Below, in pieces: positions 46,300-64,000 of a DNA stretch of 64,000 bases. Position numbers and translations under genes: made by a program. Below the pieces are notes generated by a model. That model was not told the origin of the DNA. It saw nothing but the letters and a program-made list of their open reading frames with translations, and did not search any database. The number at the start of each line of letters is the position of its first letter. Position 1 is the stretch's first letter. The DNA is taken from IMG/VR virus record IMGVR_UViG_3300032117_000009, positions 1-64,000 of that record. One strand, given 5' to 3'. The DNA is from a virus.

Positions 46300-47307
46300 C
46301 TAGGCCTTGACGATCTTACCAAGACCACGAGGGTTAAGAACGATCTCAGAAACAAGCTCGTCCATGACCCAACCCTTGTGGAATTTCTCAGGGGTGTGGT
46401 TCTCTTCAACGTCAAGGGAGTACATGACAGGGAAGACACCGAGGAACTCAGGAGCAGGGGTCAGATAGACCGTACCCTGAGGAACCTCAATTGAACGCTG
46501 AACCTGGAAACCACCGAACTGGATGATGCGCTCACCGGCAACAACACGGTCCTTGAAAGCCCAACCAGTCTGGTTAATGTCCCACTTGTAAAGGTCACGG
46601 TAGTCGATTGGGTTCATCAGAAGGCGAGCAGCCTCAAGCTGGTGAACTTCGATCAGACCAACGAGGTCATACAGCGAGTCAGGAGTTACATAACCTGAAA
46701 GCTCATTGACGATGTGGGTTGGTGAAACAACGTGGTTAGGGTCAACAGCGTAGTTATTGATAGCAGCTTCAAGAACTGTGATCAGGCGAGCATCCTCTTG
46801 TTGCATGATAGCCTGCTTCGACATGTCTTGGGCATACTCTACGATGTTAACACGCAAGTACCAGAGGTCTTCCTTCTTAATCTGAGGGAAGGTGGCGATA
46901 CGGAACAAACGGACTGGAACTTTCTTACCTTCGAATGGGGTAACACGAACTTCACCCTCATTACCAGACAGAACGTAAGCCTGACCGTACTCGTCCAGAA
47001 CGTCATAGACAACTGGAACACCAGGGGTCAGTGGGTCCTCAAGAAGGACGTTACGGGTCATACCCTGGTAACGAAGCTTCAGCTGGATAGGACCAATCAT
47101 ACCCTGGCCCAAACGGACCATATAGTTGTCCTTGTCAGCAAGGATCTGCGACAGACGACGTTGCTTCTCTTCACGAGTAGCAGTAACACGGCCTGTAGCC
47201 TCCTTCAGACGACTACGAGCCTCAACAATGTCATTTACATAAGTATCTGACTTGCGAGCTACTCTAGGGCCAATACCGCCCTGATTTGAAGTTAGTGATG
47301 TAGACAT
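46300..47307 (-). CDS. major capsid protein (HK97 fold, Bxz1-like)
   Basis: 335 aa after protease, scaffold and decoration genes; strongest GC3 bias in the window; AAGGAG SD; PIQLKLRYQG...EIVLNPRG. Confidence 0.88.
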   Translation of the reverse strand: MSTSLTSNQGGIGPRVARKSDTYVNDIVEARSRLKEATGRVTATREEKQRRLSQILADKDNYMVRLGQGMIGPIQLKLRYQGMTRNVLLEDPLTPGVPVVYDVLDEYGQAYVLSGNEGEVRVTPFEGKKVPVRLFRIATFPQIKKEDLWYLRVNIVEYAQDMSKQAIMQQEDARLITVLEAAINNYAVDPNHVVSPTHIVNELSGYVTPDSLYDLVGLIEVHQLEAARLLMNPIDYRDLYKWDINQTGWAFKDRVVAGERIIQFGGFQVQRSIEVPQGTVYLTPAPEFLGVFPVMYSLDVEENHTPEKFHKGWVMDELVSEIVLNPRGLGKIVKA

Positions 47308-47332
47308 TATATTTCTCCTTTAAGAAATTAAG

Positions 47333-47884
47333 TTACTGAGCGTTACCAGAAACTGTGCCGAGCGTGCCAATAGGTACAAGACGGATAACAATTTGTGTAG
47401 CGCCAAGAACATCAATAAGCTCAGCAACTGGAACGGCACCTGAAGCTTGGTCAGTGGTAAGCATACCCTTCTTGCTAGTACCAGTACCAGCGTAAAGGTA
47501 CTGACGACCACCATTGTTAGGCACTGTGTAACCAGCTGAAGCAGCTGTATCGAAAGCAGGAGCACCAATGGTGAAGAAGGCATTAGAGCCACCCAACCAT
47601 ACTGCTACTGAGTTCATACCAACCTGTGAAAGGTCATCGATGTTGGCATTACGGTCGAAAGCAGCAAGGCCAAATGGCTTAGCATAGGCTGTGCTTACGT
47701 TTGTAGCACCATCGTAAAGAGCAACCGTGTCAGCACCTGTGCGGTAAACAACCATGCCTGAGTAAATGTTACCAGTCTCGGCTGGGTCCAGGAAGGTGTT
47801 GTACGGGGTAGCCTCGTACTTTTCGTACAATGGTGTGCAAGTTCTGTGTACACCAACATTAGCAACGCTGTTAAGCTGTAGCAT
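47333..47884 (-). CDS. capsid decoration protein
   Basis: Directly upstream of the capsid gene with the same high-expression codon bias. Confidence 0.65.
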   Translation of the reverse strand: MLQLNSVANVGVHRTCTPLYEKYEATPYNTFLDPAETGNIYSGMVVYRTGADTVALYDGATNVSTAYAKPFGLAAFDRNANIDDLSQVGMNSVAVWLGGSNAFFTIGAPAFDTAASAGYTVPNNGGRQYLYAGTGTSKKGMLTTDQASGAVPVAELIDVLGATQIVIRLVPIGTLGTVSGNAQ

Positions 47885-47899
47885 GTTTTTCTCCTTTAA

Positions 47900-49522
47900 T
47901 TAAAGTGTGATGAGGTAATCGTCTTTTAATACATCTTGCTTCGAAACCGAAGCGGTTCTTGTGGTACGGCCCATCTCTGGAACACGGTTAGCCTTTGAGT
48001 TAGCAACTCGCATGGTTTGGCGTGTTTTTACCGCTCCGGTTCGCTCCATCGTGTCAAGAGTCATAATTACACCCTCAATCTTTGATGCAGACATTTTTTC
48101 ATACTGAGCAATGTGCTTAGCACGCTCATCTCTGTTAACCATGCCAAGTCGCTCAAGTCGATCTACAAGGTTAACGGCTTTCAGAAGGCCTTCACGATTA
48201 GAAGCAGTCTTTTCTCTTTCTACTTCTTCTTCTTCAGATTCCATCTCACGCTTTGATTCAGCATCAGACTTCTTCTTGTCATCCTTCTTATTATCCTTTT
48301 TCTTGTTCCTTTTAGCAACAGGCTGGTAAGGAGCAAAAGCTGGGTTTGTAGCATCACCAGGCCAAGGAGTCTTGTTCTCGCTTTGCTGCGGTACAAAACC
48401 AGTTGAAGCACCATCGTTGTAGTATGGTGGAACATCGGCAAGCTGAAGTTGGTTAGGCTGAAGGTTAGGTACAACTACATTGTCAATAAAATCAGGTGTC
48501 ATAACTTCTTGACGAGATTCTGTAACATCGTCAAGATCCTGCACTTGTGTTGGACGAGAAGTCTCTTGGTTACCATTAGTAGCCAGCTTGCCTTCTAATT
48601 GATCATGTACAGCCTTTAAATTGTCAATAACATTGGCAATCTTTACAGACTTGCCTTCCTTAAGGTGTTTGAAAATTATACCTAGTCTACGGTCAATAGC
48701 GTAAACTCGCTTGTCATTTTTAGCAGCAGACTTAATAGCATTGTGAGCAGCCCACATAGCCTTATCTACTTCCTCAACGCTACCTCGCTCAGCAAGACCC
48801 TTTGCAGCTTGACGAACAAATTTAGCAGCAGCACGCTCACCAATAGGTTGTTCCTCAGCATAAATATCAGGCTCAGCAACAACACGATTGTCACCAGGTC
48901 CACCCATAACATCCATAGCATCCAAATCTTGCACATTAATGTTGCGTGCAGGCATTACGTCCTTCCATTGTGAAGGCACTGGTGGTGGTGCCATTGATGA
49001 TAGACCTAATGGACCATCAAGGTACATGTTCGATACTTGATCGTACTGAACACCAGGTACCATAGCCTCTCTTTTACGAGGCCGTAGTTCTTTATCAAAC
49101 CGGCTCATATTAGCTCCTTGCCTTTGCTGTGTTACAGCATCTAGTTGTTGCATCCTTTGCAAATCTCTTAACTTAAGTAATTCTTGCTCAAGTTCATTAA
49201 TTCTTGTGCTAGGATCATTTTCCGCAGAACTTACATCAGATGCTTGATCTGCTTCTTGGTCTTCAACAGCTTGCTCTGGGTCTTCCTCTTCTTGTTGTTG
49301 TGGAGGCCCAGCACCTGCAGGCTGCGGTTCATATTGTGGATCACGACCTTTTTTATCAGTATCGGGATTTTGGAAATCTTCTGGTGGAGCTTCATAACCA
49401 CAAGAATCACAAAGCATTCCATCAAATTCGGAACCACATACAGGGCATTGAGATTCATCACGCATTGTGTCAACATCAGCTGGCAAACGCATGATCTCCT
49501 TTGATACCCTTAAATTAGGCAT
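47900..49522 (-). CDS. capsid scaffolding protein with N-terminal Zn ribbon
   Basis: CPVCGS...CDSCGY, acidic and Gln-rich coils, located between protease and capsid genes. Confidence 0.6.
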   Translation of the reverse strand: MPNLRVSKEIMRLPADVDTMRDESQCPVCGSEFDGMLCDSCGYEAPPEDFQNPDTDKKGRDPQYEPQPAGAGPPQQQEEEDPEQAVEDQEADQASDVSSAENDPSTRINELEQELLKLRDLQRMQQLDAVTQQRQGANMSRFDKELRPRKREAMVPGVQYDQVSNMYLDGPLGLSSMAPPPVPSQWKDVMPARNINVQDLDAMDVMGGPGDNRVVAEPDIYAEEQPIGERAAAKFVRQAAKGLAERGSVEEVDKAMWAAHNAIKSAAKNDKRVYAIDRRLGIIFKHLKEGKSVKIANVIDNLKAVHDQLEGKLATNGNQETSRPTQVQDLDDVTESRQEVMTPDFIDNVVVPNLQPNQLQLADVPPYYNDGASTGFVPQQSENKTPWPGDATNPAFAPYQPVAKRNKKKDNKKDDKKKSDAESKREMESEEEEVEREKTASNREGLLKAVNLVDRLERLGMVNRDERAKHIAQYEKMSASKIEGVIMTLDTMERTGAVKTRQTMRVANSKANRVPEMGRTTRTASVSKQDVLKDDYLITL

Positions 49523-50174
49523 ATGGAACCATTTTCTTGTCTAGGAACCAGGCACTCTCATCTGCTGGGTCAAAAACACAGCTAAGTTCAAAGAAATTTG
49601 GATTGTGACAATTTTCCCAAACCAAAGCTTCTTTTCTGGAACCGTTCTTATAAATATCTAACCTCATGCCCTTCATATAAGGAAGGTGTTCGCAATAGTC
49701 ACGTTCGGTTTTAGCGTTATTGCCACATGCAGAACACGTAGTAGAGCCTACATCAGCACCCATGCTTACTCCAGGAATTTGACCACTCATAATTGCTTGG
49801 CCAAGTTTTGGAAAAGTATGAGAATCGATTTCCATCAAACAGTACACAGAACCATCTGTGTGCCCTGATGCAAGTCTTGTTTCTTTATAAAGAGCATCAA
49901 GCACAACTCCACGAGCCTCTTTTGGATCACTATTGTTGTGCTCTACAAAAACTGGACGACCTACAAAAGTTTTGTAAGCCTTTTTAAGTTCTCCTACTGG
50001 CCAGCCATCGTAATTAGCATTGACCCTAGAAGATATCGCCCTAGAAACTGCATAGAGATAGCCAGGACGCTCCTGGTAATCAAAATCCTTTAGTGTGATA
50101 GGATGAATTTTGACTTCCTCAGCTTTCTTGAGGAAGCCTCTACGTTCTAGAGTTGGTGCGCCGAATTTTATCAT
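49515..50174 (-). CDS. prohead (capsid maturation) protease
   Basis: VFVEHN (His), GVSMG (Ser), FELSCVFDPAD match the HK97 gp4/herpes assemblin-type fold motifs; internal Cys-rich insert. Confidence 0.78.
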   Translation of the reverse strand: MIKFGAPTLERRGFLKKAEEVKIHPITLKDFDYQERPGYLYAVSRAISSRVNANYDGWPVGELKKAYKTFVGRPVFVEHNNSDPKEARGVVLDALYKETRLASGHTDGSVYCLMEIDSHTFPKLGQAIMSGQIPGVSMGADVGSTTCSACGNNAKTERDYCEHLPYMKGMRLDIYKNGSRKEALVWENCHNPNFFELSCVFDPADESAWFLDKKMVPYA

Positions 50175-50235
50175 AATGATCTAACTCTAAATTTGAGTAA
50201 AGAGTTTAAATACATTCTTTTTGCAAAAGAAATAT

Positions 50236-50679
50236 TCAATGTTTATTTAAATTGACAGAATTCAAATGTCGTTCTAAACGATTGTCAATATCAATTATTT
50301 TTTTACTTAATTCTTCAAGTGTTTTGCCACTATTAGCAATAACTGGCATAACATCTGTACGCATAGTATTTACGTCACGATTTACAATTTTTACAGCATC
50401 TTTTAAAGATGAACCGGAATTATCTTGTACTTCATGCTCAAGTTTTTCAAGTGTGCTATCTTGTTTACAAAGGTGTTCCCGTATTTCTGTAAATTGATCA
50501 CGCATTGATGGGTATCCAACTTCTGGGACTCCCATAACTTGATCATGGATAGCTGATTGATTTTTTGCTATTTTAGCTATAGATCTTCCAACCCAAATAA
50601 GCAATGTGCCAAACGCAGTGGCAGTTGCATAAATCAAAATTGTTTCTAAAGTAGTATTGATAGATATAACAGATAACAT
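50236..50679 (-). CDS. membrane-anchored coiled-coil protein (possible lysis accessory)
   Basis: One N-terminal TM helix followed by a heptad-rich coil. Confidence 0.6.
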   Translation of the reverse strand: MLSVISINTTLETILIYATATAFGTLLIWVGRSIAKIAKNQSAIHDQVMGVPEVGYPSMRDQFTEIREHLCKQDSTLEKLEHEVQDNSGSSLKDAVKIVNRDVNTMRTDVMPVIANSGKTLEELSKKIIDIDNRLERHLNSVNLNKH

Positions 50680-50680
50680 T

Positions 50681-50848
50681 TTAATCTTCGTATATTGAAT
50701 CAGTAAGGTCTAAACGATCAAGATTGCGAGCTGTACCTGATTCTTTTATTACTTCATACTTTTGTATATCAGTAGATAACGAAGTTATACCAGAAGACCT
50801 GGTATTTGCTGTTAACAATCTTGGTTTTGAATCTAATAGTCTGCTCAT
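50681..50848 (-). CDS. small hypothetical protein (55 aa)
   Basis: AAGGA SD; MSRLLDSKPRLLTANT...DLTDSIYED; below track cutoff. Confidence 0.55.
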   Translation of the reverse strand: MSRLLDSKPRLLTANTRSSGITSLSTDIQKYEVIKESGTARNLDRLDLTDSIYED

Positions 50849-50878
50849 ATCATTCCTTATAATACTTAATAAAAAAAA

Positions 50879-53800
50879 TTACATCTTTCCTTCATCATTT
50901 TGAAAATCTAAACCAGCACCAGTGTTACCATATCCAACTTCACCATCATCAGCAACACCATGCTGCATAGCTTCATTCGCAGCTTCATTATCGCTACCAA
51001 CTGCATTTGCAACACGATAATTTTCTTCAAAATCTTCTAAATTAAACTTTTCGTATTGGCTATCTGTAACAATTTTCATACCTTTTATTATTGTCATTTT
51101 ACGACGAAGTTGCTGCTCTTTAGGAACACCAAAATACATACGACCACCATATTCAGCTACATAACCATCATTATTAGATGCAGTTTTTGTAGAGGCGGTT
51201 TTAAAATCAACAGAATTTCTTTCTCCACAATTAGGGCATGGATTATTTAAAGTTTTCCCAACGAGTGAATCTTTATCAAGATCATCATAATCGCCTAACC
51301 AATCACAGGAAGAGCATTCAACTGGATTATCGTAGATATCAAAATCATAATCGCCATTGTTAAAATCATCATCATATTCATATGAAGAACCAGTTACAGA
51401 AGATTTCTTTGTTTTCTTTGTATCTGTTTTCTTTTTCGTTGGCTTCTTAGGTTGTGATTTCTTTTGATCATCAGATTCTGCTGGGCGCTGCGGTGGAATC
51501 ATACCTGGCATAAGGAACGGGCCTACCATGCTATCTGCATCAGCTTGCGTACCAGGAGTAAGAATATTAGGTGCTGATGGTTGTGATGTTATGTCAGCAA
51601 TGCCTTGTGGTGACATTTGTGCAATCATTTCAGGATTTTCTTGCTGCATATTGTATGCCATGAACTCTTGATAGTATTCAGGAGGAATAGGAAGTTCAAG
51701 AGCAATAAGACGCTCAAAGAGATCTTTTTTAAACCTTTGCTCAGCAACAACAGTTTGAAGTTTTTCTTCTGTCTTAGCTTCAATTTCATCTTTAAATTCA
51801 ATAGGAATATTGATAGCCATAGTTTTAAGAGAAACAGGAAAACCTTGACCAGCAAGCTCCATAACAAATTGACGCTCTACCTGCTCATCTCTTAAGTTCA
51901 TAGATTTAAACTGAACATCAGGGATGGCAAGTTTTGGACGCTCTTCTACGTACTCTTCTCCAGTTTCTTCATTTACAAGAAGAACTGTTTCCATGACAGG
52001 AATTCGAGCATTGCCAACTTTACGATATTCATAATGTCCTTGACGTTCAGCAACAGGACGCATACGTTCTTGAACAAATCTTGCAATCTTCTTCTGGTAT
52101 GTTGTGAGCATGTTAGTAATAAGCTCACGGTTAAGGGCACCAGAGGCATATGGGGCACCGCTCTTACCACCTTGCAGAAGTTCAGCACCAATACCGAACA
52201 CTTGCATAACCTTAGACTCAACACGTAAGAAGTCCTGGTCAAGACGAGGCATAGCTTCTCTACCGAATGCATTCTTAATATCAAGTCCATGGTGATAAGT
52301 CATCAAACGGAAGTCTGAATTGATAGCAAGTGCTAGGTCATCACGAAGTTGTTGAAGCTCAGTAGCGTCAGGAATCCAGGGTCCATCCTCGTCTACGTCT
52401 GGAAGACCAAGGGTAGCAAGAATAAGTGGTGAATATAACCTATCAGCAATAGCGTCTTGAGCAGCATTAAGCGATTCTTCAAGCATAAGCATACGGAAAG
52501 CACGAAGAAGAATTGGGCTACCGTGTTCTGACCATGGGTTAGTATTGTGCGTTACTAACCCAGCAGTTATGTGGGTGTGATAGTCGGCAATACCAATTGC
52601 CATAGTTTCTTCATCTTGTCCTAGCTCAATTTTTATAATTGAATCATAGGGGAAGTTGGATGGACGAGTATTTTTAACCGGAATTTCATCTGGAATGGCT
52701 TTTCTATTGCAAAGGGGTTTAACAAAGCTAGCGAGAATAGACTTTGACTCTTTTTTGCCAACTATTAAGCGATAACCATAGCCAGAATCTGGAGCATAAT
52801 CATATTTTGGAACATCATAGATTCTTGACTCTACGCCTAAGAAAGAAAGAAGTATTTGACAATCTTCAAGCAAAGGACGATTCATACTTGTCCAAACAAC
52901 CATGCCGTTTGAATCTACGTGGCCATCTGTGTCAAAATATCCTGCTAGGAATTCTGACCAAAATTCTTTTCCACCTTCCCAAACAAATGCAGGGACTCTC
53001 TTTGTGTGCGTTGTTTGTCCTCTAACTCCACAATCTACAAGTAGTTGTTTGATTAGATTTGGATTTTTAGTTTTTTCTCCCTGAGAAACAATCCATGAAA
53101 TTTTTGTAGATCCAGCTTGTGAAAGCTTGCAACCATAGGAAGCAACAAACTTATTCATCCAATCAATATTTTCTTGATCTTCATTATGGAACATAATTGT
53201 CTTATGCCCATAACTACCATCGCCAACCATCATTCCAAGGAATCTAGCAATGTCTTTTTCTTCATTGTTGTTTTCTTTATTAGAATAATTGTGTCCAACC
53301 AAAAGGTTTGTTCCAATAGTAAGATCAGAAGCTTCGACCCAACCATTTTCAGTAAGAAATGGGTGCTCTGAGTTAACACCAATCCTTCTACCTTGTTTTG
53401 TTGTAATCCAATAAATTGGCTCTGGATCGTTTATCCCCTGATGACTTACAGTGCTATGTACAATCTTATTGGCAGTCTCATCCCATGCAAGAACTTCATC
53501 GCCAACAGCAAGGTCCTGAGCTTTAATTGGACCAGATGGAGTCATGATATCAGTAGACCCAACAACACATTTAAATTTAATCTGTTTCATAAGAACATCA
53601 GAAACAGGAATTTCTTTATCCTGTCGTGCCCAGGCTACAACATCTGGGTAAAGTTGCATAAGTGCTGCATACTCTGGAGCAGGATCACGAGTATCAATAA
53701 GCTTCTTGATTTCATCAGGCACCTTGATGTGATACTGATAAGTTCTAAGTGCTCTATTCTTAGCTACAATAACGTCATTTGGGTTAATAATCTCGTCATC

Positions 53801-54400
53801 TTCCCAGGCACCAATACCATCGTGCCAAGAACCCATAGCAAAAGCTTCACCTACGGTCCAATGCTCACGGCCAAGGTCAAAAAGGAATTCGTCATAATCA
53901 AGACCATCAAAGAAAAGTTCTTGATAAAAATCAGCAATTTTTGGGTCTTGGTGAGTGAATTCAATATCTAGAAGTGGAAAACGAGTATAGATATCAATAA
54001 GCGAAGGTACGAGATAGTGAGTCGTGTACATAAGACGAGTCCAGTCACGAATCTTCTGAATCTGCTCGTCGGGGTCCTCCATGTTGAACCACCAAGTACG
54101 CTCACGCCAATACTCGAAAGGATCGTGGAGCTTAGGCCATGCCCATTGAGCATCGGTTCCCATAGCAGCACCTGTACGTCTGCCCATACCTTCCATATTG
54201 CGAGCAGATTGCTCATCAAATTGAGAAGATGCAGTTCTACCATCAAGGCGTTTTCTAGCTCTTGATTCAGAAGATTGCTGATTCATCACATCTTGTTTAA
54301 AAGATCCAGGAAGAATGAGCTTTTTAGCAGCAGCTCTTGATGCAGCTGCTTTGCGAATAGGTTCCCTTGGTAGGGTCAAGCCCTCGCCGTTATTAGCCAT
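50879..54400 (-). CDS. portal protein (1173-aa precursor; 831 aa after intein removal)
   Basis: Head-gene position; IDIYTRFPL, IINP, PWSEHGSPILLRAFR...ADRLYSPL resemble portal-family segments. Confidence 0.75.
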   Translation of the reverse strand: MANNGEGLTLPREPIRKAAASRAAAKKLILPGSFKQDVMNQQSSESRARKRLDGRTASSQFDEQSARNMEGMGRRTGAAMGTDAQWAWPKLHDPFEYWRERTWWFNMEDPDEQIQKIRDWTRLMYTTHYLVPSLIDIYTRFPLLDIEFTHQDPKIADFYQELFFDGLDYDEFLFDLGREHWTVGEAFAMGSWHDGIGAWEDDEIINPNDVIVAKNRALRTYQYHIKVPDEIKKLIDTRDPAPEYAALMQLYPDVVAWARQDKEIPVSDVLMKQIKFKCVVGSTDIMTPSGPIKAQDLAVGDEVLAWDETANKIVHSTVSHQGINDPEPIYWITTKQGRRIGVNSEHPFLTENGWVEASDLTIGTNLLVGHNYSNKENNNEEKDIARFLGMMVGDGSYGHKTIMFHNEDQENIDWMNKFVASYGCKLSQAGSTKISWIVSQGEKTKNPNLIKQLLVDCGVRGQTTHTKRVPAFVWEGGKEFWSEFLAGYFDTDGHVDSNGMVVWTSMNRPLLEDCQILLSFLGVESRIYDVPKYDYAPDSGYGYRLIVGKKESKSILASFVKPLCNRKAIPDEIPVKNTRPSNFPYDSIIKIELGQDEETMAIGIADYHTHITAGLVTHNTNPWSEHGSPILLRAFRMLMLEESLNAAQDAIADRLYSPLILATLGLPDVDEDGPWIPDATELQQLRDDLALAINSDFRLMTYHHGLDIKNAFGREAMPRLDQDFLRVESKVMQVFGIGAELLQGGKSGAPYASGALNRELITNMLTTYQKKIARFVQERMRPVAERQGHYEYRKVGNARIPVMETVLLVNEETGEEYVEERPKLAIPDVQFKSMNLRDEQVERQFVMELAGQGFPVSLKTMAINIPIEFKDEIEAKTEEKLQTVVAEQRFKKDLFERLIALELPIPPEYYQEFMAYNMQQENPEMIAQMSPQGIADITSQPSAPNILTPGTQADADSMVGPFLMPGMIPPQRPAESDDQKKSQPKKPTKKKTDTKKTKKSSVTGSSYEYDDDFNNGDYDFDIYDNPVECSSCDWLGDYDDLDKDSLVGKTLNNPCPNCGERNSVDFKTASTKTASNNDGYVAEYGGRMYFGVPKEQQLRRKMTIIKGMKIVTDSQYEKFNLEDFEENYRVANAVGSDNEAANEAMQHGVADDGEVGYGNTGAGLDFQNDEGKM
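52544..53569 (-). mobile_element. class 1 intein (342 aa) with LAGLIDADG homing endonuclease
   Basis: N-terminus K|CVVGSTDI, block B VNSEHPFLT, FLGMMVGDGS and FLAGYFDTDG motifs, C-terminus VTHN|T. Confidence 0.95.
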
Positions 54401-55918: not shown

Positions 55919-56372
55919 TCTTCTTCTCCATTGAGGCCTTGCGGTCCTCCCAGACTACACAGAATTCTTTTTCTCCAACTACAAGGACAGAACCCTGTAC
56001 TTTGTTACCTTTTTTATTAGCAAAAATAACTTTTGCACCAGCAATTGTTGGAGATTTTGTAGAAGCAACAACGACCATCTGAATATCTTTTCGAGCTTGA
56101 CGCTTACGAAAACCTGAAGCTTGAGCAGCAGTTCTCATATATGGAGCAGTTTGCTGAGCTGGGTTTTCATATGGATTTTCATGCTTATTGCTGTAGTTAT
56201 CACGATCAATTTCAGCAGCCCAAGCAGCACGAGAATCGTCTACAGTTTGACGATTTTGTTGAGCGTCATTTTGTACAGTGTTCATGTAATCATATGGCAT
56301 TGGTGAACCTGGAAGGGCAAAGTCTGCAGCAACATCACCGGCACTAAAGTCTTCTGTTGTGTAGTTATCCAT
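55881..56372 (-). CDS. hypothetical head-region protein (163 aa)
   Basis: AAGGAG SD; C-terminal SH3-like beta segment (KVQGSVLVVGEKEFCVVWED). Confidence 0.7.
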   Translation of the reverse strand: MDNYTTEDFSAGDVAADFALPGSPMPYDYMNTVQNDAQQNRQTVDDSRAAWAAEIDRDNYSNKHENPYENPAQQTAPYMRTAAQASGFRKRQARKDIQMVVVASTKSPTIAGAKVIFANKKGNKVQGSVLVVGEKEFCVVWEDRKASMEKKSDYQLVFKNPTN

Positions 56373-56480: not shown

Positions 56481-57383
56481 TTACCATTCTATTTTATGAC
56501 TTGATACCATTGTACCATGTTCATAATCTGCAACTGGGTGGTCATGATCGCATGCATAAGCTCCATGTTTATGAGCTTCATCATAAACTTTTAAAAGGTC
56601 TTTTTCATTATAACCTTGAAGCCAATTGTTTCTAAATCCATGATGATTAATGAGATGATTTTTCAAACTTTCGTATGAAGCATGTTTATGAGATCTAGGA
56701 TAAATACCATCGCCATTACTATCAAGACCATTAACTTGTTCTCTTGTCATATTTCTTGGTGGTCTAAATGATCTTGGAGCATTTATTATTGTGTGCAAAT
56801 CTTCTGCAACATCTGGGGTTAATGCAGACTGATCGTTTGCTTGAAGCATGCTAGCATCTTCATAAGTATCTTGCGTAGTCATGCCAGGGCTTTTTGCAAT
56901 TTTTAATTTACCTTTATTACAATTAGGACAAGTTTCTCCAACGCCACCAAAAAAATCTGTTTCGTCGTCATCACCAGGATCTAATTCTTCTCCACATTGA
57001 TCACATTCTAAATCTATAGATGGAGCAGCTTTATAAACCCTTGCAGAAACAGAAAAACCATTTTCTTCTCCAAGAATTTCTCCATTATCAGAGCATCTTG
57101 GACAATATATTAAAGTATCGCCACTTTGTGTATGTGGGTACCCTTGCGATGAAGGAAAAGAACTATGGCAACCGGCACAATAAGATGTTGAAGATTCTTT
57201 TTTATTTTTTCTTTCCCAACCCATTCTTTTATAAAGGTCGTCAAGAATAATATCTCTTGTCCTTGGAACATGAACATCATCCTGTTGACCAGGGCAATAT
57301 GTTGTTCCACGACTATCAACCCAGTCTTCATTATCATTTGGGTAAATGCTGTCACCACAATGCCAGCAAATAGCTTTTTCCAT
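56481..57383 (-). CDS. multi-module Cys/His-rich protein (300 aa)
   Basis: Three CxxC...C(xxC) modules plus a His/Cys C-terminal module separated by basic-x-Ala/Ser linkers. Confidence 0.7.
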   Translation of the reverse strand: MEKAICWHCGDSIYPNDNEDWVDSRGTTYCPGQQDDVHVPRTRDIILDDLYKRMGWERKNKKESSTSYCAGCHSSFPSSQGYPHTQSGDTLIYCPRCSDNGEILGEENGFSVSARVYKAAPSIDLECDQCGEELDPGDDDETDFFGGVGETCPNCNKGKLKIAKSPGMTTQDTYEDASMLQANDQSALTPDVAEDLHTIINAPRSFRPPRNMTREQVNGLDSNGDGIYPRSHKHASYESLKNHLINHHGFRNNWLQGYNEKDLLKVYDEAHKHGAYACDHDHPVADYEHGTMVSSHKIEW

Positions 57384-57385: not shown

Positions 57386-58819
57386 TTACGAATTTCTGTA
57401 ATTACGAGACTTACGCTTGCAATCTTCTACAGATGTACAAGGTGTGTCTCCATGCTGACGGTGCCAATCTTCGTGAAGATCATCGTGGAGTTGTGTTTCT
57501 GCTTCTGGCTCACCATTTTCACGCATATTATCCATATTGTCATAACGTGAAGCTTTAGCAGCACAATCTTCTTCTGATGTGCAAGGTGAGTCACCATACA
57601 TAGCATGCCAATCATCGTGGCCTTGATCATGGCGCATTACATCGCTCATATTATGATTGTAAGCTGGGCAACCAATTGAACCGTAATGGTCACCATATGG
57701 GTCTAGTTCTCCACCACATTGTCCACAAGAACCACATGCTCCACAGCCAGCACCATCACAATTAGGGCAATAATCACCATCAGCCATGTGAGCAGTGACC
57801 CAAGTAGAACCATGCTTGCTTTGCATCATAGCACGAAAAGATGCCTCAGCTTTTTCTTTTGAATCATGGTGAGAAAGGACTTTTCCTGTTCCCTTTTGAA
57901 GAATAACCCAGGAATCGCCACGCTTCTCAATGTACTTGTTAGCTGTACGTGAAGATGTGTGCCCCTGCTCGTCTTCCATAGGAGTATGAAATGACCCATC
58001 TGGGCATTGGCCATCTTTTTGACCAAAAATTACACCGCTCTCCCAGTACTTATCGTATGGGTTCCAGTCAATTCTTTGATTACAATTTTTGCAAGAAGAC
58101 CGTTCACCACCGTGGTAACCACCATAATCCCATTCAGATGCTAATTTGCGTGAAGCATCACGTTCCCAATCAAATGGTCGCTTACCTTTTTGAACATCCT
58201 TATGGTCTTCTTCCTTCCAATCATAAGGATTACTTTCTGGTCTTATGTTTTCAACATGACCTTTACCAAACGATGAACCATCTTCATCATTTGAATAATC
58301 ATCGTAATTTTTATTTTTATTTTTTCTGTCAATTAATTTTTGTATGCCATAAGAAGTAGCAGCCATTCCTCCTGCGATAAGATCACCAAGTGGGGTAAGA
58401 TACATTTCAGAAGATTCATGGCGAGAAGCATTCTTGCTTCTGCAAGCTTTGCAAAGTGGTGAATCTGAGTCTAGCTCACCATCAGCGCACTTTTCACAAG
58501 TTGACTTTGCAAACTTACGATTCTTGCCACAATTACAATCCTCGCACTTAGCATGACGAAGTGACCATTCAGTGTGAAGGGCTTTTACAAGCTTTGTCTT
58601 TGAATCTGATACATTGGCAAGGCGTGAAAAAGCAATTTTAGAAATCTGATCATCTACCATCTCACAACGTTGGGCAAATTCACCATCTGTGTGAGCGTTG
58701 AAAAGGAAATCACCAGTAACCTGGAGGGCATCATACTTAGCAGCGATAAGTGACTTACCTGCTGTCTTAGCCTGGAAAACGATCTCTTGTGAATCATCAA
58801 AATCGAACATGGAAGACAT
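57386..58819 (-). CDS. multi-module Cys/His-rich protein (477 aa)
   Basis: AAGGAG SD; helical N-domain then several small Zn-type modules and a His/Cys tandem repeat. Confidence 0.75.
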   Translation of the reverse strand: MSSMFDFDDSQEIVFQAKTAGKSLIAAKYDALQVTGDFLFNAHTDGEFAQRCEMVDDQISKIAFSRLANVSDSKTKLVKALHTEWSLRHAKCEDCNCGKNRKFAKSTCEKCADGELDSDSPLCKACRSKNASRHESSEMYLTPLGDLIAGGMAATSYGIQKLIDRKNKNKNYDDYSNDEDGSSFGKGHVENIRPESNPYDWKEEDHKDVQKGKRPFDWERDASRKLASEWDYGGYHGGERSSCKNCNQRIDWNPYDKYWESGVIFGQKDGQCPDGSFHTPMEDEQGHTSSRTANKYIEKRGDSWVILQKGTGKVLSHHDSKEKAEASFRAMMQSKHGSTWVTAHMADGDYCPNCDGAGCGACGSCGQCGGELDPYGDHYGSIGCPAYNHNMSDVMRHDQGHDDWHAMYGDSPCTSEEDCAAKASRYDNMDNMRENGEPEAETQLHDDLHEDWHRQHGDTPCTSVEDCKRKSRNYRNS

Positions 58820-58919: not shown

Positions 58920-58938
58920 AATAAATACATTGTTGGCC

Positions 58939-59367
58939 TTAAAAGTTAAACCCATGCTCTCTGAGCTTTTGTCTTGCGTAAGGAACAACCATTTTCCCCA
59001 TGTTTTTTGTACTATAGTCGCCTTGTTTTTCATCAGAATTATATTTTTCTAATTCATGAACATCAGAAGGGTAATAATCAAATTCTGGGTCTGGATCTTC
59101 TTCTTCAAAACCTTCCAAATATTTTAAAAATTTTTGGTAATAATTACGTATATTTTCACTATCTTGAGGCCCATCAACATCAAAATGTCTTACACCGTCA
59201 TACCATTTTTCATTAGGGATTTCACAAGTCCAATGCTGAGCATCATCAAAATTACTTGAAGCAAATTTAACTATTGGCCAATTTGTTATATGATGAACTG
59301 CCCATGCAAAAGCATCGCAATGTCCATGCTTATAATTAAGTTCATGTGGTTGTACATTATCACTCAT
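58939..59367 (-). CDS. hypothetical protein with a putative Cys-His-Asp triad
   Basis: YKHGHCDAFAWAVHH...QHW...FDVDG. Confidence 0.65.
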   Translation of the reverse strand: MSDNVQPHELNYKHGHCDAFAWAVHHITNWPIVKFASSNFDDAQHWTCEIPNEKWYDGVRHFDVDGPQDSENIRNYYQKFLKYLEGFEEEDPDPEFDYYPSDVHELEKYNSDEKQGDYSTKNMGKMVVPYARQKLREHGFNF

Positions 59368-59403
59368 ATTACTATGACCAATCTATAAACAAATTACATA
59401 AAG

Positions 59404-59479
59404 TGGAGCGTGTGAGGATCGAACTCACCTAATAAAGAGATATAAGCTCTTCGGATGCTACCAGCTTACCTTACGCTCC
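59404..59479 (-). tRNA. trnI: tRNA-Ile(UAU), atypical
   Basis: Acceptor GGAGCGT/ACGCTCC + A73, anticodon arm AAGAG-CTTATAT-CTCTT, GTGAG-TTCGATC-CTCAC T-arm; A rather than U at position 8. Confidence 0.72.
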
Positions 59480-59494
59480 AAAATTATTATTTTG

Positions 59495-59579
59495 CGGATA
59501 CGGTGTGATTCGAACACACGGTTGCTTTCACAACGCTGGTTTTCAAGACCAGTCCATTAGTCCACTCTGGCACGTATCC
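59495..59579 (-). tRNA. trnS: tRNA-Ser(UGA)
   Basis: Long variable arm, G73, anticodon arm CTGGT-CTTGAAA-ACCAG. Confidence 0.93.
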
Positions 59580-59590
59580 TAAAATTATAG

Positions 59591-59672
59591 TGGAAGCGGT
59601 AGGATTCGAACCTACGAACTCTGAGAGAACAGTTTTACAGACTGCCTGCTTTAGCCACTTGCATACACTTCC
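59591..59672 (-). tRNA. trnY: tRNA-Tyr(GUA)
   Basis: Long variable arm; anticodon arm GCAGT-CTGTAAA-ACTGT. Confidence 0.93.
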
Positions 59673-59673
59673 T

Positions 59674-59749
59674 TGGGGTGACCGATGGGACTTGAACCCA
59701 CAACCGCTCGGGCCACATCCGAGTGCTCTACCAATTGAGCTACGGCCAC
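59674..59749 (-). tRNA. trnH: tRNA-His(GUG), CCA encoded, no genomic G-1
   Basis: Anticodon arm CTCGG-ATGTGGC-CCGAG; C73; the base at -1 is T. Confidence 0.9.
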
Positions 59750-59754
59750 ATTTA

Positions 59755-59811
59755 GATAGGTCCTGATAGCCACTCCAGGTTGATCTACTATATAGATCGG
59801 CATTACCTACC
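59755..59811 (-). ncRNA. 57-nt three-way-junction element between tRNA-Pro and tRNA-His
   Basis: GGTAGGT/ACCTATC closing stem, GATCTA/TAGATC hairpin, CCTGG/TCAGG hairpin. Confidence 0.55.
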
Positions 59812-59815
59812 ATAG

Positions 59816-59888
59816 TCGGGTTGGAGAGACTCGAACTCTCGGCCTCATGCTCCCAAAGCATGCGATCTACCTACTGATCTACAACCCG
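59816..59888 (-). tRNA. trnP: tRNA-Pro(UGG)
   Basis: CGGGTTG/CAACCCG acceptor, GATC/GATC D-stem, CATGC-TTTGGGA-GCATG anticodon arm; 5' end overlaps the endonuclease ORF. Confidence 0.9.
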
Positions 59889-60353
59889 TAAATAATTTTC
59901 TATTTCTAATTTGTTGTTTTCATACCAACCAAGTCTAATATTGCAACCACAACAAAGTAATCCTCTTACATTACCTGTTACATGATCATGATCAATTGCA
60001 AAGTTTCTTCCAGTAGAACATTTATCTGTCTTGCAGATAGAGCATTTGTTGTTCTGATTCTTCATCATATCATGAAAATCATCTATTGTTAAACCAAATA
60101 GTCTAGTTCTTTCTTTAATATTTAAACATGGTCTACAATATGCTGATTTTTTTACTTTATTGTTTTCTTTACAATAAATACATAAATCAGTAAAGTTCTT
60201 TTTTTGTGATCTAATTGGGTTGTTTGTTATAGCTGCACATTGCTGAGAACAAAACAAACCTGTGCCTTTTTTGATCTGGTACTGATATCTTGTGAATGTG
60301 TTGTTGCAATCTTTGCTTTTGCACGTTTCTTGAATTGAAGTAATTTTATTCAT
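59871..60353 (-). CDS. endonuclease VII-like (His-Me) free-standing homing endonuclease
   Basis: QNNKCSIC...AIDHDHVTGNVRGLLCCGCNIRLG; N-terminal Zn fingers; AGGAGG SD. Confidence 0.9.
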   Translation of the reverse strand: MNKITSIQETCKSKDCNNTFTRYQYQIKKGTGLFCSQQCAAITNNPIRSQKKNFTDLCIYCKENNKVKKSAYCRPCLNIKERTRLFGLTIDDFHDMMKNQNNKCSICKTDKCSTGRNFAIDHDHVTGNVRGLLCCGCNIRLGWYENNKLEIENYLRVVDQ

Positions 60354-60401
60354 ACTTATAAACCCTCCTATTACTTTTTTGTTTTCAAGTATGAATTACA
60401 T

Positions 60402-60423
60402 TACCAAGCTGCGCCACAACCCG
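60402..60423 (-). pseudogene. orphan 5' fragment of tRNA-Pro
   Basis: CGGGTTGTGGCGCAGCTTGGTA: acceptor 5' strand identical to the intact tRNA-Pro plus a canonical D-arm start, then breaks off. Confidence 0.75.
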
Positions 60424-60448
60424 TTACTTGATTAACATATCATAAATA

Positions 60449-60637
60449 TTACTCTGTTTCTCCAATATCCCAATCATCATAAGAGCCAAGACGAACCATA
60501 TGAATACAAGGATCATCTCCACGTTCCCAAGCAAGCTCTTCGCTTTCATGCATAGGTCCACCATCATGCGTATTACAAAATTGATCTGTGCAATACCCAT
60601 TATCAATTCCAAATTTCAACCACTCATCAAATGTCAT
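60449..60637 (-). CDS. small hypothetical protein (62 aa)
   Basis: MTFDEWLKFGIDNGYC...CNTHDG...DPCIHMVRL; probable Cys/His metal site. Confidence 0.7.
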   Translation of the reverse strand: MTFDEWLKFGIDNGYCTDQFCNTHDGGPMHESEELAWERGDDPCIHMVRLGSYDDWDIGETE

Positions 60638-60666
60638 ACTTTTATCTTTCCACTATGTTTATAAAG

Positions 60667-60740
60667 CTCCCGAGGTAGGACTCGAACCTACAACATCCTG
60701 ATTAACAGTCAGGCGCAACTGCCAATTGTGCTACTCGGGA
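60667..60740 (-). tRNA. trnN: tRNA-Asn(GUU)
   Basis: Anticodon arm CCTGA-CTGTTAA-TCAGG; G73. Confidence 0.93.
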
Positions 60741-60750
60741 ATGTTTATTG

Positions 60751-61224
60751 TTAATAAGATTTACCTTCAGCATATCTTTTTTTTCGATATGCCCTTCCAT
60801 TACCTCTATTCTTTCCTTTATATGTTTCTAGAAGCATATCACAATTACCGCAGACTAAACGAACATTTTCCCAAGAGTTATTATATGAATTGCCATCTAT
60901 ATGATCAAGAATTAATGGCATTGGTTTTCCTTGCCACTCAGTCCCTTTACATATTGAGCAAGTGTTACCTTCTGTTGCAAGTCTAGTATTCTTTAATATT
61001 CTAGTTCCAGCTTTTTCATCTAATATTTTTTTAATGCCTCTACAAAAACTAGAACATACATTAGAACCTTTATAAGTTTTATTATCACAAATAACACACT
61101 GAGTAATTTTATTTTTATCTAGTTTAACTCTTTTTGGGTGTAAAGAATTGTTTCTTTTTGTAGAATAAGATCTAGAACAAAATTTTGGATTATTTGTTTC
61201 TTTTTTACAATTTAAACATTCCAT
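60751..61224 (-). CDS. HNH homing endonuclease
   Basis: CSICK.TEWQGKPMPLILDHIDGNSYNNSWENVRLVCGNC; N-terminal Zn fingers. Confidence 0.88.
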   Translation of the reverse strand: MECLNCKKETNNPKFCSRSYSTKRNNSLHPKRVKLDKNKITQCVICDNKTYKGSNVCSSFCRGIKKILDEKAGTRILKNTRLATEGNTCSICKGTEWQGKPMPLILDHIDGNSYNNSWENVRLVCGNCDMLLETYKGKNRGNGRAYRKKRYAEGKSY

Positions 61225-61226
61225 AG

Positions 61227-61301
61227 AGCCAGCACTCGGACTCGAACCGAGGAAACCTCCACTTTACAAGAGTGGCGCTCTACCAACTGAGCTATACTGG
61301 C
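61227..61301 (-). tRNA. trnT: tRNA-Thr(UGU)
   Basis: Anticodon arm CCACT-CTTGTAA-AGTGG; variable region about 2 nt longer than usual. Confidence 0.9.
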
Positions 61302-61319
61302 ATTTCTTGCTACAGAGAT

Positions 61320-61347
61320 ACTATAGCATGAAATCTAGGTATTTTAC
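61320..61347 (-). promoter_or_regulatory. sigmaA-type extended -10 promoter for the right tRNA cluster
   Basis: CATGC-TATAGT with GTAAAA 16 nt upstream; about 20 nt before tRNA-Thr. Confidence 0.6.
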
Positions 61348-61497
61348 CTACTTCTCAATAATATTTACCTTAAGTCCACTAACTTGACTCAGAAGAGAGT
61401 TTCGAAGACCATCAATAGTCTCCTTAATCTCCTGTAGAGGAAGTTCATTGCCCTCTTGATTGTCGTAGGTGATCTTAATTGTAACTGTCTTAGGCAT
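61348..61497 (-). CDS. small hypothetical protein (49 aa, MPKTVTIKITY...)
   Basis: GGAGG SD and TAATG coupling to dps; 3' part of track ORF 61348..61551. Confidence 0.6.
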   Translation of the reverse strand: MPKTVTIKITYDNQEGNELPLQEIKETIDGLRNSLLSQVSGLKVNIIEK

Positions 61498-61976
61498 TAT
61501 CCCTCCGTAACGTTTACTTTTCCTAGAGAAGAACCTAGCTGCCATTGCCACTTCTGATGCATGTCAATTCTTTCTGCAACGAAGTTAGCGACACCTTGTT
61601 CATTCTGCTCGTTTGCTTTTGTGAACAATTGTACCAGATCTTCCAGGACAATTTTATTATCTTCGTAAAGATTTTCAGTTAATGTCTTTGCATCAAACTT
61701 ATTAACGTCACGTTCTTTCAATGATGTTAACTCTAAAAACTCTTTGAGGGTAAATGGAGCTAACCCACCAATCTTACGACAGTTCTCAGCCATAGGATCA
61801 AGAGAATCATAAACATCTAAATAAATAGTTTCAAATAATGCGTGATATTCTTGAAAATCTGTACCTACAAGATTCCAATGATAACCATGTGATTGGTGAT
61901 AGAACACAGCAATATTAGCTACATTCTTCTTTAATGCTTTTAATAGCTCTTGATCCTTGGCTGATAAACTGTACAT
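61497..61976 (-). CDS. dps: Dps / DNA-binding ferritin-like protein
   Basis: HGYHWNLVG.DFQEYHALFE...D.MAE.CRKIGG...F..ERIDMHQKWQWQL; ferroxidase His/Asp/Glu residues present. Confidence 0.92.
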   Translation of the reverse strand: MYSLSAKDQELLKALKKNVANIAVFYHQSHGYHWNLVGTDFQEYHALFETIYLDVYDSLDPMAENCRKIGGLAPFTLKEFLELTSLKERDVNKFDAKTLTENLYEDNKIVLEDLVQLFTKANEQNEQGVANFVAERIDMHQKWQWQLGSSLGKVNVTEG

Positions 61977-61981
61977 AGTTA

Positions 61982-62317
61982 TTACCTTAGTTTTGTACCG
62001 GCTGGGATTTGACCGTTAGCCTTAATGATTGTTTTTTGCACAGACTTCATAGCAATGTTATTAATTAAAGCAGTAACAACACCAGCAACCTGGGTAGCTA
62101 CGCCAGCCCAAACTTGAATGTTGTGCGAAACTGAATTAGGTATAACGACACCAGCTGATGTAAGAACACCGATGATAAATAAAGCAACAGCAACGACATA
62201 AGCAATGTCAGCTGGAATATTTGACCAAGTGACTGGCGGAACTGGTGTAGGTACTGTGTTTTCTTTTTTTGGTGCAATTGTTTTTGCAGTGTTTGTTGTC
62301 TTTCTGGCTTCAGCCAT
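61982..62317 (-). CDS. holin-like membrane protein (2 TM helices)
   Basis: Two hydrophobic helices with basic N- and C-termini; AGGAG SD. Confidence 0.5.
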   Translation of the reverse strand: MAEARKTTNTAKTIAPKKENTVPTPVPPVTWSNIPADIAYVVAVALFIIGVLTSAGVVIPNSVSHNIQVWAGVATQVAGVVTALINNIAMKSVQKTIIKANGQIPAGTKLR

Positions 62318-62337
62318 TATTTCTCCTTATTTGTTTG

Positions 62338-64000
62338 TTACCAACTATAATTATCGTCGTAATCATCTTCATCGTCATCATCAGAATCATCATCTTCTGT
62401 ATATGAATCATATTCAGAGTCATCGTATTTTGATGAAGTAAACCAAGATGTTACATCTGGAAGTACAGCCTGCCCTTGTAATGAAGCTGGAAGCTGGGTT
62501 GTGCTTTGTTCGGTGCCTTTTGGTCCTTTTGGTCCTTCTTCAACATCTGCAACATTATTAGAAAGATCTTGTGGACCCATGCCTTCACCAAAAACAGAAC
62601 CTACACCTTCATAGTTTGTGTCTTCTATTTCAGCTAAAAACAACCTTGAAGCAAGTGTATCATGCGTAAAGAAACTATTTCCAGGTATTGTCTCAGAAAC
62701 TTCTTGTGGTTGGTTATCAACATCTTCACCAACTGTTTGGTTTGGAGCATCTACCCCAGAAAACTCTGGCCCAAGCTCTTTTGGTGATAACCTATCTGCA
62801 ATCTTTATATTACCGTTTTCATCAAAAGAATAAACTTTTGCTGTTTTAGTATTGTTATTCATATCGTAAAGATTTTTGTGGACATTTTCGATATCTTTTC
62901 TAGCTTTTTCAAAGCCTTTTTCACGACCTAAAAGACTATAAGCATGAACTGGTATTATATGTTCTTGTTGCCAACTATATCCTAAAATATTAGCATCATT
63001 ATCATATAATGGTTTAACATACCTTTCTGCATGTAAATGGGAAGAATCAGGATCTATAAGACCATTTGACGTATCGTAAAAATTAGTAAAATTATAATCT
63101 GTATCACTATAATCCCTACGCTCTATTTCGTTTTTAGGAATTCCAAATTTGTTTATATGATAATTTATATATTTATCTGCCTGAGCATTAGCTTCTTCTT
63201 CTGTTTTTGATATGCCGGTTATAGTATATAAATTATGTATTTCGTTTGGGTAGCCTTTCCATATCATTGCTTGTAATTTATGACCATTACCTATATTAGC
63301 ACTATGCTGATCTGGACGAGGGTAAAAATTATCCCAAGCTTCATCCCAAGAGCCTCCACGGTGTTCTTCAGCAAAATTTTCTCTATCTTCGTATGTTTTA
63401 TGTAATAATGGTGGATAATAAAAATGATCTCTATCATTCCAATCTGAATAATGAGTACCCCACTCTTCTGGTTCCCATTCACCAGTTATTTTATTGTAGC
63501 TAGCAAATTTATTATTTTTAGAAGAATTTATATCGTATAAATCTTTGTGGACACTTTCAATATCTTTTTTAGCTTGTGAATATAAATCATCTATGTTATT
63601 TAAATAATCCTCATATTTATAATTATAATGTGATTGTTGCCAAGAATAACCAATATGTTTGCCATTATTATCTATTAATGGTTTTATATCCCTAGTTACA
63701 ATTTGCCAACCTGGGTCACTAGGTTTTTTGTTTTTATTGCGAAAATCTCTCATTTTATAATCATCAGGATGAGTGTAATTATCAATATCATATTCACCAT
63801 CATCATTAAAACGAGAATCAATTGGCAAAGTCATATTTCCTTTATCATTTTTTATTTCAATATCCTTATGGTTGATTCCAAATTTATTTAAATGATAATT
63901 TAAATATTTATCTGCTTGAGAATGTGCTTCTTTTTCTGTTTTCCCAATACCATAAATTATATATTGAGATTCTATTCCATCATTATTTTTAAATATTCTT
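62338..64000 (-). CDS. 5'-truncated repeat-containing head-region protein (more than 553 aa)
   Basis: The frame stays open upstream of the track ATG (63834) to the window edge; two alternating repeated modules and an acidic C-terminus. Confidence 0.75.
   Translation of the reverse strand, partial: RIFKNNDGIESQYIIYGIGKTEKEAHSQADKYLNYHLNKFGINHKDIEIKNDKGNMTLPIDSRFNDDGEYDIDNYTHPDDYKMRDFRNKNKKPSDPGWQIVTRDIKPLIDNNGKHIGYSWQQSHYNYKYEDYLNNIDDLYSQAKKDIESVHKDLYDINSSKNNKFASYNKITGEWEPEEWGTHYSDWNDRDHFYYPPLLHKTYEDRENFAEEHRGGSWDEAWDNFYPRPDQHSANIGNGHKLQAMIWKGYPNEIHNLYTITGISKTEEEANAQADKYINYHINKFGIPKNEIERRDYSDTDYNFTNFYDTSNGLIDPDSSHLHAERYVKPLYDNDANILGYSWQQEHIIPVHAYSLLGREKGFEKARKDIENVHKNLYDMNNNTKTAKVYSFDENGNIKIADRLSPKELGPEFSGVDAPNQTVGEDVDNQPQEVSETIPGNSFFTHDTLASRLFLAEIEDTNYEGVGSVFGEGMGPQDLSNNVADVEEGPKGPKGTEQSTTQLPASLQGQAVLPDVTSWFTSSKYDDSEYDSYTEDDDSDDDDEDDYDDNYSW

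Follow-up and report, generated by a model that had tools for sequence, protein, structure and literature searches.

The assemblin of herpesviruses cuts at (V/L/I)-x-A↓S, where the arrow marks the cut bond, and a cut near the C-terminus of the scaffold frees the scaffold. To our knowledge, the specificity of prohead proteases is known for few phages, all of which cut after Glu or Lys. In phage SPN3US, a related prohead protease cuts many head and ejection proteins at the short consensus AXE (PMC10052503). The T=16 shell of Myrna, a cluster C phage, carries a cement protein and was likened by the authors to herpes simplex virus 1 (HSV-1) (PMC7150772), while Iyer et al. (2017) described polyvalent proteins, encoded near virion genes, that are predicted to be packaged, processed by peptidases and delivered with the DNA, a few of them with assemblin-like peptidases (PMC5512222). 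Here we examine a window of 64,000 nucleotides (nt), positions 1 to 64,000 of the IMG/VR virus record IMGVR_UViG_3300032117_000009, whose part from 46300 to 64000 is, judged by its genes, the head-assembly module of a phage. By sequence similarity, the kin of this uncultured phage are the Mycobacterium cluster C phages (Bxz1/Myrna) and Rhodococcus phage E3, with Bacillus phage G more distant. Predicted proteins of the module carry a short tag, a basic residue two positions before an Ala that is often followed by Ser. Most likely, the herpesvirus-like capsid protease of the phage recognizes this tag as its cutting site, since a single consensus directs kin enzymes to many head and ejection proteins and the tags sit where cuts would be useful. 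As an explanation of the whole pattern, maturation by the prohead protease at Ala-tag sites seems to us probable, and in proposing it we infer that cuts occur, that this enzyme makes them and that the upstream proteins are packaged.

The locus resembles those of T4 gp21, phiKZ gp175 and SPN3US gp245 in that a protease with a predicted fold of the same type is encoded in the head module, and in that one short consensus occurs in capsid, scaffold or core, portal and internal proteins, where it closes what at this locus are candidate N-terminal leaders (PMC10052503). The three known enzymes cut after Glu (L/IxE, AxE), whereas at this locus, where processing is predicted, the residue before the cut (P1) would be Ala and P3 would be basic, and cuts are predicted between many tandem modules, beyond N-terminal propeptides. 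With herpesvirus assemblin and pre-assemblin (UL26-type) the locus shares the predicted fold and a putative Ala-Ser pair, including V-Q-A↓S in the scaffolds of relatives; with the herpesvirus R/M-site system it shares a candidate site 16-17 amino acids (aa) from the scaffold C-terminus and, in E3, Phabba and the related locus L069, a fusion of protease and scaffold. Unlike in herpesviruses, the protease of this phage has a gene of its own, P3 is mostly Lys or Arg, a Cys3His cluster has been added and the putative substrates are many more. Polyvalent proteins (PMC5512222) are likewise large, multi-module and encoded beside virion genes, but here a separate gene encodes the peptidase, which would act in trans, most modules are small Cys-rich units that match no family, and their joints share an explicit tag; no single polypeptide was found that joins several effector domains to an embedded peptidase.

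Motif counts were compared with those expected when the residues of each protein are shuffled, using a set of non-overlapping open reading frames (ORFs) from the whole genome. The genes between 46300 and 64300 contain 14 sites of the pattern [KR].AS (the dot stands for any residue) where shuffling predicts 2.6 (z 6.7), 25 of [KR].A[SKN] where it predicts 7.8, and five of [KR]TAS where it predicts 0.1. Outside this interval, [KR]TAS is found once (0.9 expected) and [KR].A[SKN] 42 times (34.5 expected), while the 26 occurrences of [KR].AS (12.5 expected) owe their excess to genes at 64-84 kb, just past the window; genome-wide, the [KR].AS excess is confined to one block reaching from the scaffold gene to ~84 kb. 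Given that the motif had been picked after inspection of the data, all dipeptides, tripeptides and gapped patterns were ranked as an unbiased scan. The dipeptide AS is the most over-represented one in the 47.9-84.8 kb block (80 against 40), and K.AS (19 against 2.7) and R.AS (11 against 1.7) rank directly behind CxxC-type patterns of the zinc-ribbon kind; outside the block all three lack enrichment, and within it the same ranking showed none for the Glu-type patterns LxE and AxE. The codons for Ala, Ser and Lys or Arg at the tag sites are mixed and match genome usage, so the signal lies at the protein level. A DNA-level cause was considered and rejected on the same mixed codons and on the lack of tandem DNA repeats in the gene for a 1249-aa repeat protein described below.

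A scan of IMG/VR with the protease gave 71 related loci with 33-93% identity in this protein (55-93% in all except L069, L072 and L073), in which gene order is retained. In 60-odd metagenomic relatives whose proteases share less than 70% identity with the one here, 360 [KR].AS sites lie in genes upstream of the cement and capsid genes, where 80 are expected, and genes downstream of the capsid gene contain 12 where 16 are expected. The sequences of relatives are homologous and z-values are therefore inflated, but the contrast between upstream and downstream genes is still clear. A consensus of the [KR].A-S type is thus common to several head proteins, with no excess in tail and replication genes, and the enrichment that the initial annotation, made from the DNA sequence alone, had proposed as a check on its reading proved real and specific to the head region. 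That annotation had assumed an A↓S-like cutting rule. Alignment of the sites shows a small residue (Ala, sometimes Gly or Ser) kept on the N-terminal side of the proposed cut, while the residue after the cut (P1') varies among Ser, Ala, Thr, Gly, Asn, Lys and Arg. A retained small P1 with a free P1' fits the S1 pocket of a protease, not a requirement for Ser, and the core rule seems closer to Lys or Arg (or Val or Thr) at P3, any residue at P2 and Ala, rarely Gly or Ser, at P1 than to a strict A↓S.

The candidate reader of the tag is a free-standing protein of 219 aa encoded beside the scaffold and capsid genes, in a gene order shared by about 70 related loci. Its AlphaFold2 (AF2) model has a mean predicted local distance difference test (pLDDT) score of 87. 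Aligned with VIA-align across 48,161 chains, the model matches T4 gp21 best (5jbl; Z 10.2 over 130 aa, root mean square deviation 3.0), followed by the proteases of varicella-zoster virus (VZV; 1vzv, Z 9.7), human cytomegalovirus (8j3s, Z 7.3) and Kaposi's sarcoma-associated herpesvirus (1fl1, Z 5.3), while the best unrelated chain reaches Z 4.7. In Foldseek, nearly all of the top rows are gp21 or herpesvirus protease chains, with weak E-values of 0.01-0.1; a search of PDB sequences with the protease returned chance zinc-finger matches only. His79 and Ser137 are invariant in an alignment of 38 homologs, with a spacing of 58 residues that is similar to that of gp21. The model thus identifies the protein as a prohead protease with the T4 gp21/herpesvirus assemblin fold, which bears out the earlier claim of an assemblin-fold protease at this position. 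The family also has an invariant cluster of Cys147, Cys150, Cys161 and His163, probably a zinc site inserted into the gp21/assemblin fold and not seen in the descriptions of solved relatives, and a conserved KLA↓SG lies inside the protease itself (nt 49866-49877).

The tag recurs in the structural proteins of the head. In the major capsid protein, which shares 63% identity with its counterparts in Mycobacterium cluster C phages and Rhodococcus phage E3, a candidate leader ends at PRVA↓RK (P1 Ala17, nt 47254-47265). The unique N-termini of capsid proteins from relatives consist of a variable 10-20 aa followed by conserved R-[TV]-A↓[KR]-[KR]-S-D..YV, and E3 and Phabba show G-R-F-A↓K. In the PDB, the capsid protein matches gp27 of Bacillus phage G (6wkk, E 1e-30), which is uninformative on processing because its gene was annotated without the leader region. 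In the cement protein, an internal negative control, [KR].AS is absent.

The scaffold-like protein consists of a putative Zn ribbon, an acidic region and a helical C-terminal domain, and its gene occupies the position of the C-terminal part of E3 gp77 and Phabba gp102. Candidate sites are an RQGA↓N junction (nt 49109-49123), EKTA↓S (48200-48211), MRVA↓N (47999-48010) and TRTA↓S (47948-47959), the last lying 16 aa before the C-terminus. Its counterparts are TTA↓S in relatives, PRTA↓S in Phabba and PRIA↓A in E3, the latter two both 17 aa from the end, and a conserved [KR]VA↓S is found in scaffolds 17 aa further upstream of this C-terminal tag. The site at 440 is conserved as QA↓SRE directly before the conserved helical domain; distant relatives have V-Q-A↓S there. 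Most of them encode the scaffold in two genes, split one residue after Q-G-A, and the fused scaffolds, including that of this phage, keep Q-G-A at the junction. Protease and scaffold form one ORF in E3 (gp77), Phabba (gp102) and L069, the E3 and Phabba fusions being 895 or 1209 aa long with the protease as the N-terminal part. In this phage they are separate ORFs, the protease stop and the scaffold start overlapping by 8 nt (49515-49522) with the scaffold in the +1 frame. Four loci (L036, L053, L054 and L057) have a separate protease and the scaffold as one long ORF.

Candidate sites in the portal are GRTA↓S (nt 54227-54238), RRTG↓AA (54167-54178) and a double FKTA↓STKTA↓S (51176-51202). Two of these positions are kept in distant relatives, one as RR.[AG]↓AA just before the conserved core and the other as KKT[AS]↓S in a basic, low-complexity linker ahead of the C-terminal domain. 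The portal is interrupted by an intein at about nt 52541-53575, with LAGLIDADG_3, Intein_splicing and Hint domains. Portals in related loci are ~780 aa (no intein), ~1130-1170 aa or 1520-1582 aa long, and intein content differs among close relatives. Relatives of the small 55-aa protein encoded between portal and protease carry LPKTA↓ near residue 15.

Upstream of the portal, tags mark the borders of modules in several otherwise unrelated proteins. In the 477-aa protein, AKTA↓G (nt 58757-58768) lies inside the conserved N-terminal domain and LRHA↓K (58547-58558) at its end, the putative Zn modules are bounded by RKFA↓K (58505-58516) and SKNA↓S (58424-58435), and SRTA↓N (57938-57949) stands directly ahead of the small conserved domain. 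All seven relatives that cover the N-terminal region keep KTAGK and RHA, homology in the family ends a few residues past RHA, and the C-terminal parts otherwise differ; in the homolog from L008, extra Zn modules are inserted between KNA↓S and RKFA↓K. Relatives thus gain modules (L008) or split genes (scaffold, QGA↓) exactly at tags, in agreement with the module-boundary check proposed in the initial annotation. The 163-aa protein has MRTA↓A (nt 56124-56135) and, 17 aa before its C-terminus, DRKA↓S (55932-55943); among 35 unique orthologs, the conserved part opens with the first site in the form K.A↓SQ, and the second site has the form D[KR]TA↓SVERK. Most of 16 unique orthologs of the 60-aa protein retain [KR]-x-[AG]↓. 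The two repeats of the 632-aa protein, which comprise residues 4-237 and 245-463 by their alignment to one and the same stretch of a paralog from 91.3 kb, meet at NKFA↓S (nt 63499-63510), and its acidic tail begins after TKTA↓K (62836-62847). Conserved tags inside variable sequence are therefore found in the capsid leader, the scaffold, the portal extensions and the 163-, 60- and 477-aa families.

The clearest modular arrangement lies beyond the window, in a protein of 1249 aa (genome 80299-84048) that is made of 12 Cys-rich modules, each ending in ..Y..AWGF followed by [DNG]K[KDN][AS]. A 13-aa N-terminal leader ends at K-E-A↓S, and the C-terminus of the protein falls exactly at AWGF. Nine metagenomic homologs (P0002-P0010) contain 2-10 such linkers each, and most end at or near an AWG[FL] half-linker; the leader is kept as K-[QK]-A↓[ST] in seven of them (P0002-P0008). 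These homologs come only from a large protein database: no match to the 1249-aa protein was found in five relatives of 110-133 kb, and searching IMG/VR at the DNA level for a pattern encoding the AWGF[DN]KKA linker gave none. Leaders ending in a tag are conserved in three families, the capsid protein, the 477-aa protein (the 90-aa domain, ending at RHA↓) and the 1249-aa repeat protein (aa 13), and may have a targeting role. The spacing of CxxC pairs suggests that the Cys-rich modules may bind zinc. The 1249-, 537-, 654-, 477- and 447-aa proteins have no Pfam match at the curated cut-off, with a sub-threshold Pam3_gp59 match in the 477-aa protein; a 634-aa protein shows only a sub-threshold match to ParB_N.

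From these observations, we hypothesize that the 219-aa serine protease drives procapsid maturation through cuts behind a small residue, usually Ala, with Lys or Arg (sometimes Val or Thr) at P3 and, at P1', usually Ser, Ala or some other residue that is small or basic. It would cut a leader of ~17 aa off the capsid protein, clip the last 16 residues of the scaffold and so free it from the shell, in the manner of the herpesvirus M-site, take the scaffold apart at the joints between its domains and trim both extensions of the portal. It would also free modules from the multi-module upstream proteins, namely those of 477, 163 and 632 aa and the Cys-rich "beads-on-a-string" proteins encoded at 64-84 kb. 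The hypothesis predicts that the mature capsid proteins of E3 and Phabba start with K-[AS]-S-D after GRFA↓. The initial annotation had gone further and proposed that polyproteins are packaged as cargo, cut into small peptides and ejected into the host. The motifs that it cited were found where it had placed them, and this interpretation is partly supported, packaging and ejection being conjectural. Its statement that nearly every ORF carries the motif was an overstatement, as the EndoVII, HNH and Dps genes and the tRNA island are unrelated insertions.

Several observations weigh against the proposed cleavage. The motif is short and its P3 position is not strict (V-Q-A↓S, T-T-A↓S). Enrichment is weaker in the high-GC cultured phages E3 and Phabba (z 1.3-1.6 for [KR].AS, 2.9-4.4 for the broader pattern), where the trend has the same direction as in this phage. 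KRFA↓S, listed as a site in the initial annotation, and ERMA↓A of the 243-aa protein are not conserved in relatives, so these two are probably not sites; GRTA↓S of the portal is restricted to close relatives. The C-terminal tags of the scaffold sit in sequence that is conserved throughout, so that their conservation does not single them out, and the C-terminal tag of the 163-aa protein likewise lies within a generally conserved domain. An AF2 model of one Zn module with both of its linkers, calculated from an alignment of 10 paralogous modules, has low confidence (pLDDT 54) and is too poor for use; the linkers come out as coil. The block also encodes ordinary enzymes, for example an RNase H-like exonuclease, and not all of its proteins need be cargo. 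The literature searched contains neither cleavage nor virion-proteomics data for cluster C phages or E3, nor cleavage data for phage G, whose structure paper lay outside the search, and the article on Myrna makes no mention of cleavage (PMC7150772).

Some of the same evidence could be read without any cut. An uncleaved docking or targeting motif, read by the scaffold, the portal or the shell interior, or a conserved flexible hinge of head-internal proteins, would show the same block-specific enrichment and conservation, and several tags do lie near N- or C-termini, the usual place of capsid-targeting peptides. We nevertheless consider this unlikely: there is little reason for a docking motif to recur at all joints of a 12-module protein or to coincide with points of gene fission, the tolerated substitutions (small P1, free P1') resemble the subsite pattern of a protease, and the module encodes a trans-acting protease with a fold whose herpesvirus representatives cut after Ala. 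Nor would a reader be needed if the excess had mostly been inherited through repeated or duplicated modules and conserved domains, a view that can point to the one repeat protein that supplies 8 of the 31 [KR].AS sites in the block, to the scaffold and 163-aa tags in generally conserved sequence and to paralogs within the block. When the repeat protein is removed, however, ~22 sites remain where roughly 4 are expected (arithmetic from the block counts), in contexts as unrelated as the capsid leader, the portal linkers, the scaffold and the 477-, 632-, 163-, 142-, 240-, 259- and 634-aa proteins, and no such excess is seen in tail and replication genes; we rate inheritance as a little less likely even than docking.

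Least probable of all, and by our estimate very improbable, is that the tag is a modification site of the basophilic Ser/Thr-kinase type (R/K-x-x-S), the target of some other phage enzyme or a site for a host protease. [KR]-x-A-S does place a basic residue at -3 from the Ser, and head proteins of staphylococcal phage 80alpha are reportedly processed by the host at FA↓S-type sites (PMC5744158, in part). A kinase-type motif is disfavoured because the Ser is the less conserved position, replaced by Ala, Gly, Thr, Asn, Lys or Arg (Leu, His or Met in linkers), while the preceding small residue is kept; family-library searches that covered part of the genome found no kinase, and the restriction of the tag to genes of the head module argues for a head-specific enzyme. 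Taken together, the pattern of substitutions and the coincidence of tags with gene-fission and repeat boundaries make these alternatives less likely than cutting by the prohead protease.

An Ala-specific rule with a basic P3, if true, would be a first for phages, and the likeness to the herpesvirus enzyme would then include the substrate besides the fold. Should the tag be read as proposed, sequence alone would suffice to list the proteins that many uncultured phages carry inside the capsid and possibly inject, and the Cys-rich genes with many modules would encode true viral polyproteins in a bacteriophage. It is possible, although we hold it as a doubtful extension, that a herpesvirus-like rule of cutting after Ala applies clade-wide, to Bxz1/Myrna-type actinophages, low-GC uncultured relatives and perhaps phage G-like megaphages, with a capsid that is possibly T=16, the tag acting as an address-and-release code. 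Any module placed between tags behind an N-terminal loading domain would then be packed and freed as a small protein, a single gene could deliver a dozen or more zinc-ribbon modules to the host together with the DNA, and the link between herpesviruses and phages would extend from the fold to the substrate rule and the mechanism of scaffold release.

Table 1. Features of the head module between 46300 and 64000 (window coordinates; candidate cuts are marked by an arrow)
Feature	Position	Strand	Details
Major capsid protein, 335 aa	46300..47307	-	phrog_2522, E 5e-108
Cement (minor capsid) protein, 183 aa	47333..47884	-	PF23968 Phage_cement_3, E 3e-27
Scaffold-like protein, 540 aa	47900..49522	-	position between protease and cement protein
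Predicted prohead protease, 219 aa, free-standing	49515..50174	-	phrog_18299 head maturation protease, E 4.5e-27; phrog_2774
Two small conserved genes (147 aa, 55 aa) between portal and protease	50236..50848	-	tag-like ..LLTA↓N in the 55-aa protein
Portal, 1173 aa, with intein	50879..54400	-	phrog_2833, E 9e-153
60-aa Cys4 protein	54415..54597	-	RKLA↓T at nt 54544-54555
243-aa protein	54597..55328	-	present in 61 related loci
163-aa protein	55881..56372	-	variable acidic N-terminal part, conserved basic C-terminal domain
300-aa Cys-rich protein	56481..57383	-	LKIA↓K, HKHA↓S; 12 Cys
477-aa modular protein	57386..58819	-	conserved 90-aa N-terminal domain, putative Zn modules, small conserved domain
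142-aa protein	58939..59367	-	VKFA↓S at aa 36, nt 59257-59268
tRNA/homing-endonuclease/Dps segment, not part of the tag system	59403..61976	-	seven tRNA genes, EndoVII, HNH, Dps/ferritin-like gene
Edge ORF, 632 aa in full (to genome position 64236)	62338..64000	-	two ~230-aa repeats and acidic tail

The contig from which the window is taken is 124,688 bp long and ends in an exact direct repeat of 127 bp (1-127 = 124562-124688), so the genome is probably complete; the sequence suggests a genome of ~124.56 kb that is complete and circularly permuted or terminally redundant. Nearly all genes lie on the minus strand (Table 1). Read 5' to 3' on this strand, the order is the two-repeat protein of 632 aa, a small membrane-like ORF, the Dps/ferritin-like gene and the tRNA/HNH/EndoVII island, then the proteins of 142, 477, 300, 163, 191, 243 and 60 aa, and finally the portal, two small genes, the protease, the scaffold-like protein, the cement protein and the major capsid protein. 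A terminase was not located among the proteins searched. The 300-aa protein has weak matches to HypA and to a double zinc ribbon, both under the curated cut-off, and orthologs in six related loci only. A 447-aa protein encoded further along the block (genome 68434-69777, minus strand) has 48 Cys and consists of ~12 short units in tandem that follow the pattern C..C(R/K)..C..C..E(I/L).D, with no family match and no basic-x-Ala tags between the units.

The tRNA/EndoVII/HNH island spans 59403-61301, with the Dps-like gene adjoining it at 61497-61976, and this whole segment is an unrelated insertion that carries no cargo. Its seven tRNA genes are those for Ile, Ser, Tyr, His, Pro, Asn and Thr, with the EndoVII and HNH genes interleaved among them. 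A 124-aa ORF at 59487-59861 is spurious because it overlies tRNA genes, and the EndoVII ORF (59871-60353) shares 18 nt with tRNA-Pro (59815-59888).

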